A stretch of DNA of 28,825 bases from IMG/VR virus record IMGVR_UViG_2698536355_000015, positions 1 through 28,825 of that record. One strand, written 5' to 3'. The stretch is from a virus (taxonomy: Duplodnaviria; Heunggongvirae; Uroviricota; Caudoviricetes). This document shows positions 25,802 to 27,432 of the stretch, piece by piece (position 1 is the stretch's first letter; the number at the start of each line of letters is the position of its first letter). The position numbers and the translations under genes are program-made. The notes under the pieces were generated by a model. The model was not told where the DNA came from. It did no database searches and saw only the letters and a program-made list of their open reading frames with translations.

Positions 25802-26281
25802 TTATTTGAGGCACTGCGTGGTGATGTATTCCTGCAGGCCGCTCACTTGTTTGGTGATAACGCTAATTCGCTCTCTGAGGGTGAAATAATCCCGTTGAGC
25901 GGCGTCAGTAAGTCGGGGGCCGGTTGCATCATCCACGCCGGTGGCGCCGGAGGTATTACCCTTGGGGCAGGTGGCGTTGATGTGCAGCCCACACTTGCCA
26001 GAACGAACACACTGCTGAAGAGCATCAAGCTGCTTTTTCGCATCAGCTAACTCCTTTGTGTATTTGGCATCCAGCGCAGCGACGTCGCGCTGCCGGGTCT
26101 GCATGTCGGTTATGGTGGCGTTCGCCAGCGTCAGGGCGGATGTGGCTTTATCGCGCTGGTCTTTGTAGGTGATGGCGTTGTCGCGGTAGTGGTTCACTGC
26201 CAGTAACAGCACGCCGATAACTGCAAATACCAGAATCGGCAGCCATAGCTTTTTCAGCGCTGCGAAGATGGCTTCACTCAT
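25802..26281 (-). CDS. Rz: Inner-membrane spanin Rz (i-spanin)
   Basis: Strong identity to lambda Rz ([13 protein letters not shown]...[24 protein letters not shown]...RDYFTLRER); N-terminal transmembrane helix. Confidence 0.85.
25843..26043 (-). CDS. Rz1: Outer-membrane lipoprotein spanin Rz1 (o-spanin), embedded in Rz in the +1 frame
   Basis: Lipobox (LASVGC) and Pro-rich segment [14 protein letters not shown]...[11 protein letters not shown], matching lambda Rz1 (PPPPPAWIMQPPPD...[11 protein letters not shown]); lies entirely within Rz. Confidence 0.8.
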
Positions 26282-26763
26282 GGTTTAGACTCGCTCACCT
26301 GACCGCCAGCGGCTTTGAATACCGCGATCAGATTATCCGCTTTGTGCTCAAACTGGCCGTAGCCCGCACCGGGGAGTGAGGCCCATATATTGCTGCAGCG
26401 GTCGATAGCCTGTCGAATGTCTCCGCTGTCGATTAACGGCAGCGCGCCACGCTCCTTAATTTGCTGAAGCGCCACTGCGTCCTGGCTGGCCGGGGAGAAG
26501 TCTTTCAGACCAAGCTGCACCCGGTATGCATCCCACCATTTGGACAGCAGCTGGTAGCGGCCGGCAGCCGTTGATTTCAGTGTTGGGCTAAGCGTGACCA
26601 GCTTTCGGGGGTGATCTGAATAATCGGTAAACAGGGAACCGCCGACAATAACGTCGTATCCGTGGTTATTGGTCTTCTGCCTGCCGTTATCGGTTCCTTC
26701 AGACCAGGCCAGCATATCGAGAAATGCTTTTCGTTGAGGACTCATCGTCTGCATCAGCGCCAC
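26278..26763 (-). CDS. R: Endolysin, lambda R-like lytic transglycosylase
   Basis: Near-identical over most of its length to lambda R ([47 protein letters not shown]...[22 protein letters not shown]). Confidence 0.9.
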
Positions 26764-26768
26764 CTTTT

Positions 26769-27050
26769 TTAATGTCTCAGAATATCAATCAGACGCGCCA
26801 TATTTCCCCGTACCCAAAGCACCGCGGCGCATATAAACAGGTTTCCCAGCACCACCAACCAGTGCGATTCGTGGTACAGGCCAAACAGAAAACGGAAAGG
26901 CACGAAGGCGTAAACCAGAATGGTCAGGTACGCCAGAAAGGAAACGCCTGGCCGGTGCCTGGCGCCGCGACGCTGGTAGAACATCAGGACAATCACGATA
27001 ACGGCGCAGATAATGACGTTCGCCAGCGTTGCCGGATCACTTACTACCAT
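26769..27050 (-). CDS. Lysis-cassette membrane protein (possible second holin/antiholin)
   Basis: 93 aa with about three hydrophobic helices, located between the holin-like gene and the endolysin; not lambda S-like. Confidence 0.45.
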   Translation of the reverse strand: MVVSDPATLANVIICAVIVIVLMFYQRRGARHRPGVSFLAYLTILVYAFVPFRFLFGLYHESHWLVVLGNLFICAAVLWVRGNMARLIDILRH

Positions 27051-27432
27051 TTGAACCTCCTCCCCGCAGGCGGGAGAGCATACCGAACAGGCTGTTCAGA
27101 TCCTGACTGTTGAGAAACGTCAGCACTTTGATGATCAGCGCTGAAATCAGAACAGCGCCTAGTGCGTCCAGCGGTCTGTCGGTGTAACCAAGCCAGGTGC
27201 TGAGCTTCGCACCCAGCAGGCCAGCGCCCAGCACGCCGACAATAAACGATGTCAGAAAGTAGGCTGCCAGCCGTCGGCGCGTCAGGTTTGCCGTGGTCGC
27301 CACGTAGAACACGGCCCCGGCAAACGCACCAAATACGACGCCGAAATCGGTTTGCGTCAGGATGCCGTACATAGTTGCGCCCAGCAGGCCGCCACCCAGC
27401 ACGACGCCAGTGCCAGTTACAGGATCGGACAT
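27037..27432 (-). CDS. Putative holin (non-lambda-S type)
   Basis: Gly/Ala-rich membrane protein with about three transmembrane segments, first gene of the lysis cassette, directly downstream of a terminator. Confidence 0.5.
   Translation of the reverse strand: MSDPVTGTGVVLGGGLLGATMYGILTQTDFGVVFGAFAGAVFYVATTANLTRRRLAAYFLTSFIVGVLGAGLLGAKLSTWLGYTDRPLDALGAVLISALIIKVLTFLNSQDLNSLFGMLSRLRGGGSNGSK

Follow-up and report, generated by a model that had tools for sequence, protein, structure and literature searches.

The lysis cassette of phage lambda (S105/S107, R, Rz, Rz1) is arranged in the order holin, endolysin and embedded spanins, and it forms part of a late operon that depends on Q and precedes the terminase genes. 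The same gene order and the same setting are found in a stretch of viral DNA of 28,825 nucleotides (nt) that is deposited as IMG/VR record IMGVR_UViG_2698536355_000015 (Caudoviricetes) and that is referred to as the window in the following. On the minus strand of positions 25802-27432, five tightly packed open reading frames (ORFs) encode two membrane proteins of 131 and 93 amino acids (aa), which we call h131 and h93, an endolysin and the spanins Rz and Rz1. The ORFs occupy the coordinates given in an earlier annotation made from the sequence alone (the original prediction), according to which lambda-type lysis genes have been joined to a different holin module. Here, we conclude with a probability of about 85% that the five genes are part of the late operon of a lambdoid prophage and form an intact lysis cassette, which is of mosaic origin and would act via the canonical three-step pathway.

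The original prediction described the endolysin and the spanins as nearly lambda-like. This description is appropriate for the endolysin, which shares 87% identity with lambda R over 155 aa (E = 6e-105), and it is overstated for Rz (61%) and Rz1 (55%), although both are still clear homologues of the lambda proteins, with about 70-73% identity at the nucleotide level. However, the window encodes proteins of the PF16931 and PF05449 families instead of the lambda S gene with its dual-start motif. An overlapping holin pair of this kind is present in the phages mEp390 and HK639, whose lysis genes are listed as 'holin, holin, endolysin, Rz-like spanins'. The PHROGs labels of the window genes are, in gene order, holin, holin, endolysin, Rz-like spanin and Rz-like spanin. 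The pairs of mEp390 and HK639 are 64-72% identical to that of the window (tblastn) and are likewise preceded by a conserved leader downstream of Q. However, both phages possess a 208-aa endolysin of glycoside hydrolase family 19 (GH19) and spanins of another family, and the nucleotide similarity to the window ends at the h93 stop codon. Moreover, the PF16931/PF05449 pair lies immediately next to toxin genes in phage phiP27 (L28/L29) and in LT-II prophages, where the genes are annotated as 'holin1/holin2'. The phiP27 type is the source of the only experimental data found for the holin-pair family (PMC12571312). Its proteins differ more strongly from the window pair (about 44-50% identity), the partner is an M15_4 peptidase or a GH108 endolysin, and in many Shiga toxin-producing E. 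coli strains the endolysin is absent beside the phiP27-type pair (PMC12571312).

The first gene of the pair codes for h131 (27037..27432, minus strand), which belongs to the Phage_holin_8 family (PF16931; E = 1.5e-35, 122.4 bits against a gathering cutoff of 26.4) and matches phrog_198, labelled 'holin' (5.6e-40). The second gene codes for h93 (26769..27050, minus strand), a member of the Phage_holin_3_7 family (PF05449; E = 1e-16, 61.2 bits against a gathering cutoff of 25.4) that matches phrog_217, also labelled 'holin' (6.5e-34). The two genes overlap by 14 nt at ATGGTAGTAAGTGA, an arrangement of the translational-coupling type. A Shine-Dalgarno (SD) sequence is present before each cassette gene; that of h93 is GGAGGAGG. 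The distribution of the pair was followed in two sets of loci, the 80 best IMG/VR loci and the species-representative loci, for which one genome per species carrying h131 was taken (n = 51). The strong SD sequence, the overlap with h131 and the conservation of h93 in all 80 IMG/VR and all 51 species-representative loci make it very probable that h93 is expressed.

Neither protein resembles lambda S, in agreement with the original prediction. The lambda S family PF05106 was not matched by h131 or h93 even at E<=10, whereas lambda S itself gave an E value of 2.4e-30. In hhalign comparisons with an S-family alignment, the h93 and h131 families reached probabilities of 1.2% and 0.5%, respectively; this alignment is shallow (at least 75% identity), which limits its sensitivity, so that a very remote kinship could escape. 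The Met-Lys-Met dual-start motif is also lacking because h131 begins with MSDPV and h93 with MVVSDP, with no second in-frame start within the first residues. On the basis of the Pfam search at E<=10 and of hhalign, we reject the idea that h131 or h93 is a divergent S-family holin, and hhalign likewise argues against the two proteins being paralogues of each other (probability 0.4%). A search of the five cassette proteins against NCBIfam returned no significant model. According to its hydropathy and charge map, h131 is predicted to contain four Gly/Ala-rich transmembrane (TM) helices and a short basic C-terminal helix; the positive-inside rule predicts an N-in/C-in orientation, with an RRR loop between TM2 and TM3. 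For h93, three TM helices in an N-out/C-in orientation are predicted, with basic residues in loop 1 and in the short C-terminal tail; this corresponds to the layout of class I holins. AlphaFold2 models, which were used for helix counts only, place helices at residues 5-26, 31-48, 52-81, 87-109 and 112-123 of h131 (mean predicted local distance difference test score (pLDDT) 59.6) and at residues 6-24, 34-55 and 63-92 of h93 (mean pLDDT 57.4).

The endolysin (26278..26754, minus strand, 158 aa) can be classified by homology as a soluble lytic transglycosylase of the lambda R type (GH104). It matches the lambda lysozyme structure PDB 1am7 over residues 4-155 (phmmer, 2.4e-90), and both 1am7 and 3d3d are found at about 1e-90. 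Pairwise alignment shows that the WSEGT motif (LAWSEGT) is conserved together with the position of Glu19 of lambda R, which we take to be the catalytic glutamate. In contrast to the endolysin of the phage 21 pinholin system, the enzyme lacks an N-terminal signal-anchor-release (SAR) domain or any other hydrophobic N-terminus, the maximum Kyte-Doolittle mean over 18 aa being 0.36. An in-frame GTG at 26763 would extend the protein to 161 aa. However, the ATG at 26754 is most likely the start codon because the SD sequence AAGGTGG lies 5 nt upstream, because gene callers choose it and because SD sequence and ATG are kept before an unrelated endolysin in a sister prophage (see below). With this start, the enzyme has the same length as lambda R.

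The endolysin stop codon is overlapped by the start of Rz (25802..26281, minus strand), forming an ATGA-type junction. Rz is an i-spanin of 159 aa (PF03245, 3.4e-44; phrog_13, 1.8e-66), in which a hydrophobic segment at residues 4-33 forms the N-terminal TM anchor and is followed by a periplasmic coiled-coil region. The o-spanin Rz1 (66 aa, minus strand; PF06085, 2.8e-17, with a match beginning at Cys20) was said to be fully embedded in Rz in the +1 frame, and this is indeed the case: Rz1 extends from 26043 to 25843 within Rz (26281 to 25802), and the two starts are 238 nt apart (238 mod 3 = 1). Rz1 has the SD sequence AAGGAG, the lipoprotein signal LASVG/C (Cys20) and a Pro-rich mature part. 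It occupies the fraction from 0.50 to 0.91 of the Rz length, a placement that is typical of embedded spanins (PMC6139136). The Pfam assignments of the two membrane proteins and the two spanins all lie far above chance level.

The positions at which nucleotide similarity to other loci begins and ends mark the cassette as a recombinational mosaic of units joined at gene boundaries, with breakpoints at the h93 stop and the endolysin start. The proposed joining of lambda-type R, Rz and Rz1 to a non-S holin module by recombination is thus borne out. More than 20 holin-pair loci, which belong to other genera and to phages such as mEp390, HK639 and SaltyDalty, match the window solely between position 27477, located 45 nt before the h131 ATG, and positions 26769-26776, where the h93 stop lies. 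The nucleotide match of lambda to the window is confined to positions 26737 to 25871. The R-Rz block is matched by 888 phage records, and in the 25 best-ranked of these 888 the match begins at base 18 of the endolysin gene.

The clearest sister for locating the exchange is a prophage of [Enterobacter] lignolyticus SCF1 (IMGVR_UViG_649633041_000003; L069, cassette at 2619-4351; a further sister-prophage cassette, L068, lies at 1675-3407). Its holin pair is 99% identical to that of the window at the protein level and 92% at the DNA level, and the leader, the intergenic SD sequence and the endolysin ATG are the same. The common stretch reads ...CAT TAA AAAAGGTGGCRCTG ATG CA and is followed by complete divergence; it runs through CATTAAAAAAGGTGGCRCTGATGCA and ends two bases past the endolysin ATG. 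Beyond this point, L069 encodes a CHAP-domain endolysin (PF05257) and an unrelated i-spanin of 190 aa. Therefore, the exchange point would be the short SD-containing linker together with the first endolysin codons, which places the holin/endolysin joint, as read from the aligned sequences, in a stretch of about 20 nt surrounding the start codon of the endolysin.

A second joint lies at the other end of the cassette. CP012871 ([Enterobacter] lignolyticus) carries a copy of the cassette that matches the window from 27566 to 25803, the base adjoining the Rz stop, at 94.7% identity; its flanks are different, and the two sequences differ until 25093. In CP012871, different small ORFs occupy the segment that separates Rz from the packaging genes, and thus another mosaic joint is situated exactly at the Rz stop. 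In the window, this segment contains, at 25119-25760 on the minus strand, a 98-aa ORF (phrog_1935) and a 75-aa ORF (phrog_5901), both of unknown function, and behind the Rz stop, at 25783-25796, lies a short hairpin, CTCGCAAAAGCGAG. The spanins have also been reassorted: lambda-like Rz/Rz1 genes stand behind a GH19 endolysin in four loci (L046, L050, L052 and L055), and an Atlantibacter locus (L059) combines a lambda-R-like endolysin with a subsequent overlapped spanin pair of another family. Most likely, the cassette consists of three units that can be exchanged independently: the holin pair together with its leader, the endolysin gene, and the spanin genes.

The endolysin genes that follow the holin pair are diverse. 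Among the species-representative loci, h131 is followed by a GH19 endolysin of the mEp390 type in 37/51 cases, by a GH108 + PG_binding_3 endolysin in 13/51 and by a lambda-R-type endolysin in 1/51. In the IMG/VR set, the corresponding numbers are 67/80 for GH19, 10/80 for GH108, 2/80 for CHAP and 0/80 for the lambda-R type. Other partners are an M15_4 peptidase (phiP27 and Actinobacillus pPE4) and a PF11860 muramidase (Pectobacterium MA11), which brings the partner endolysins to six families (GH19, GH108, M15_4, CHAP, PF11860 muramidase and lambda R). Since lambda R is rare among the partners, one can equally read the 'swap' the other way round, as a common holin unit behind which an unusual endolysin/spanin block has been placed. 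The choice of direction is arbitrary; among the carriers of the pair, the exception is the lambda-type endolysin.

The two holin genes are firmly linked. The h131 gene is located upstream of h93 in 80/80 IMG/VR loci, both genes are present in the 51 species-representative loci, and among the distant cases examined no h93-family gene was found without an h131 partner. The pairwise identities of h131 and h93 correlate (r = 0.84), with mean identities of 66.7% and 54.7%, respectively; the two proteins co-diverge as one unit. Overlapping PF16931/PF05449 pairs also occur in P2-like phages of Ralstonia, in siphoviruses of Pectobacterium and Serratia, in an Actinobacillus phage and in Stx2e and LT-II toxin prophages. 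The holin-pair region was matched in 391 of 5,426 complete E. coli genomes (about 7%), and in the top matches the annotation 'phage holin family protein (x2)' precedes GH19. With 253 clusters at 50% identity in a set of 1.84 billion representatives, the h131 family is small. In three loci, the pair stands directly beside AB5 toxin genes, namely in L149 (Rac-SA53), L151 (SerU-LTIIb) and L005 (phiP27). The LT-IIa/IIb genes are located after the endolysin, a pertussis-like toxin gene before the holins and stx2e also before the holins. This adjacency links the holin unit to toxin release.

The holin pair is preceded by an untranslated leader (27437..27476, minus strand), which was recognised as a conserved pattern in the fetched loci. 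In the window, it reads CCCCTCA-ATTC-TGAGAGGA-N19-GAGGGGG and ends 4 nt before the h131 ATG. Across the loci, the pattern is CCCCTCA-(4-14 nt)-TGAGAGGA-(about 19 nt)-GAGGGGG, with invariant arms and variable spacing. The exact pattern was found once each in 130/155 fetched loci, directly upstream of h131 wherever the h131 start is known, and no occurrence in the window would be expected by chance. The leader is more conserved than the downstream coding sequence and forms the left edge of the common holin module. Its CCCCUC segment is perfectly complementary to the h131 SD sequence, which suggests that the first holin gene is subject to translational control, and the leader may therefore act as an anti-SD element for h131. 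An RNAalifold consensus pairs CCCCUC with the SD sequence, every pair being invariant; no covariation is visible in this fold, and the single-sequence z-score is 0.01. It is tempting to speculate that the PF16931/PF05449 pair is an obligate two-component holin, never dissected biochemically, whose output is set by the invariant 5' leader; we regard this idea as tentative. In the envisaged leader (CCCCUC ... GAGAGG ... GAGGGGG), an anti-SD segment might compete for the h131 ribosome-binding site, which is a similarly uncertain proposal. The leader could then be a translational timer, with the sdi structure of lambda S as an unrelated analogue, a comparison we offer with the same reserve.

How could the cassette bring about lysis? 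According to the preferred reading, h131 and h93 would be co-translated, build up in the inner membrane and open large, non-specific holes at a programmed time. The soluble lambda-R-type transglycosylase would then exit through the holes and cut the glycan strands of the murein, and finally the Rz/Rz1 spanin complex would fuse the inner and outer membranes. Hole formation, hole size, division of labour and timing in the pair are inferred. As a working assignment, we consider the pair as a two-protein holin unit, in which the four-TM protein h131 would be membrane-active and the class-I-like three-TM protein h93 would serve as co-holin or timing regulator. The holin/antiholin label that had been given to the pair is an assumption, with either polarity conceivable. 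The partner endolysins provide a clue to the type of lesion. All five that were examined lack an N-terminal hydrophobic or SAR segment, and therefore the unit must give folded cytoplasmic enzymes a route, which calls for large holes and not for pinholes. From this, we infer that the pair is a canonical large-hole holin.

Published genetic data come from Stx2e-producing strains with a phiP27-type pair. Replacement of the gene for the 130-aa h131 homologue by a kanamycin cassette abolished the enrofloxacin-induced appearance of extracellular Stx2e, and release of the toxin was regained with the cloned 130-aa gene (PMC12571312). This homologue is 50% identical to h131. We mapped the published primers on phiP27 (L005, AJ298298, region 2069-2561). 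The deletion (2119-2511) removes the whole of L28 (Phage_holin_8) and also takes the SD sequence and the start codon (at 2501) of L29 (Phage_holin_3_7). Thus, the published 'delta-holin' mutant is probably a double knock-out. The complementing clone holds the h131-type gene alone. Since the deletion hits the L29 start and a clone with L28 only complements it, the h131-type protein would be membrane-active without its partner. Literature searches on the two Pfam families and on lambdoid phages with 'two holins' yielded only listings and the Stx2e paper (PMC12571312), and the literature searched contains no direct study of hole formation, topology or timing of the pair.

Several points weigh against the preferred reading. 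The read-out of the Stx2e study was toxin in supernatants, and not lysis or hole formation, and complementation relied on a multicopy plasmid (PMC12571312). Moreover, the Stx2e strains may carry other prophage holins, and together these points weaken the case for sufficiency of the h131-type protein. The AlphaFold2 models of h131 and h93 are of low confidence (pLDDT 57-60), so that the helix counts rest mainly on hydropathy. With its predicted classical class I topology, h93 could be the real hole-former. Finally, the spanins differ from those of lambda in their cysteines. Rz1 lacks an equivalent of lambda C29, its single cysteine being the lipid-modified Cys20, whereas Rz has four cysteines (C90, C96, C104, equivalent to lambda C99, and C157, equivalent to lambda C152), two more than lambda Rz. 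However, lambda tolerates the loss of C29 when C152 of Rz is kept, at least one of C152 and C29 being required, and phage SfI, in which the C29 equivalent is likewise absent, has been judged functional (PMC6139136). With C157 retained, Rz/Rz1 should work as in lambda.

It is conceivable, though in our view rather unlikely, that h93 is the sole hole-former, like lambda S105 or P2 Y, and that h131 is an inhibitor or timer, like P2 LysA. The class-I-like topology and the short basic C-terminal tail of h93 fit this explanation, as do the tight linkage and co-divergence expected of an interacting pair. Moreover, sizes and TM counts mirror those of phage P2, whose lysis cluster comprises the 93-aa, three-TM holin Y (PF04550, Phage_holin_3_2) and the 141-aa antiholin LysA, which has four TM helices; such a combination with a protein of about 130-140 aa is an analogy only. 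Indeed, hhalign detects no homology of h93 to Y (0.19%) or of h131 to LysA (0.17%), that is, about 0.2% each, and P2 lysA follows the endolysin gene. Stx2e release was restored by the h131-type gene alone although the mutant, according to primer mapping, also lacks the h93-type start codon, and therefore a pure inhibitor role for h131 is hard to reconcile with the complementation. In addition, h131 is the more conserved of the two proteins. The same complementation by the phiP27-type 130-aa gene (PMC12571312) speaks for the reverse assignment, in which h131 is the hole-former and h93 delays or sharpens triggering, and h131 is also the first gene of the operon and bears the conserved leader. 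However, we remain doubtful about this assignment, too. Toxin release is not hole formation, and a glycine-rich protein with four TM helices, none of whose relatives has been studied experimentally, does not count among the established holin architectures of Gram-negative phages. Moreover, h93 is strictly retained in phages from Betaproteobacteria to Pasteurellales, which points to more than an accessory role.

It is extremely improbable that the membrane proteins merely depolarise the membrane and that the endolysin reaches the periplasm unaided, as in a pinholin/SAR-type pathway. TM1 of h131 is weakly hydrophobic and glycine-rich and bears a superficial likeness to the SAR-type TM1 of the phage 21 pinholin. 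However, the window endolysin is an orthologue of lambda R without an N-terminal hydrophobic segment, the five partner endolysins checked are built likewise, and such enzymes could therefore not be released by a pinholin. We also consider it very improbable that the cassette is a decaying, non-functional remnant of a cryptic prophage. Many copies of the holin pair are indeed found in defective prophages, for instance in Stx2e regions without an endolysin (PMC12571312). However, all five ORFs of the window cassette are intact and preceded by SD sequences, about 30 contigs carry them in identical form, and complete packaging and morphogenesis genes are also present in the window.

By its gene order, the genomic setting is the late operon of a lambdoid prophage. 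In NCBI assemblies, the Q antiterminator gene is followed by a reversed low-GC cargo gene, a 62-aa ORF and the holin pair, and then by R, Rz/Rz1, small ORFs, the small terminase gene, a lambda-type gpA terminase gene, gpW and the portal gene. An identical cassette is deposited in the E. coli draft assembly GCA_012614485.1, and the contigs with identical cassette proteins belong to E. coli and [Enterobacter] lignolyticus. The names given to these proteins by NCBI are 'phage holin family protein' (twice), 'glycoside hydrolase family 24/104 protein' and 'lysis protein'. The exact cassette is absent from the 5,426 complete E. coli genomes, in which no place covered at least 80% of the query; it occurs in drafts only.

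The window contains an isrI-like small-ORF transcript with an intrinsic terminator (27548..27784, minus strand), which adjoins the cassette on its upstream side, is encoded on the same strand and lies between Q and the holin genes. The Rfam model isrI (RF01392) is matched at 27682..27586 with 71 bits (gathering score 45; E = 2e-13), the ORF of 62/64 aa extends from 27784 to 27590 (phrog_1856, 3.6e-38), and the terminator at 27571..27548 consists of a hairpin followed by a T-run. IsrI of the Salmonella prophage Gifsy-1 is a sigmaS-dependent, Hfq-bound transcript of 248 nt with a 62-aa ORF (PMC2330248, PMC5437024). Since the isrI-like element lies between Q and the holins, late transcription must read through its terminator, which Q-modified transcription presumably does. 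Further upstream, a complete ORF of 301 aa (27920-28825, plus strand) is oriented opposite to the late operon and matches phrog_7003, a family of unknown function. Its GC content is 35-45%, compared to 52-61% in the lysis genes, and neither this ORF nor the neighbouring cargo ORFs matched Pfam or PADLOC. It represents the reversed cargo gene in the slot between Q and the lysis genes, where mEp390 and CP012871 hold other reversed genes.

Every part of the cassette belongs to a curated family, and what has been found is ordinary phage lysis-cassette mosaicism. The family classification and topology prediction that had been suggested for the two membrane proteins assign h131 to Phage_holin_8, with four predicted TM helices, and h93 to Phage_holin_3_7, with three. 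It had also been considered that the 131-aa protein might belong to the S family and that the 93-aa ORF might not be expressed; instead, no S homology was found, and h93 is very probably expressed. The discovery value is small because mosaicism of lysis cassettes is textbook knowledge and an identical cassette has already been deposited and automatically annotated. The cassette provides, however, a clean worked example in which the joint can be placed within about 20 nt, with a common intergenic SD sequence as the linker. The broader, and still modest, point is that the widespread PF16931/PF05449 two-gene unit and its conserved leader are almost uncharacterised. With the well-understood lambda-type partners R and Rz/Rz1, the cassette would be a convenient chassis for studying this holin unit.

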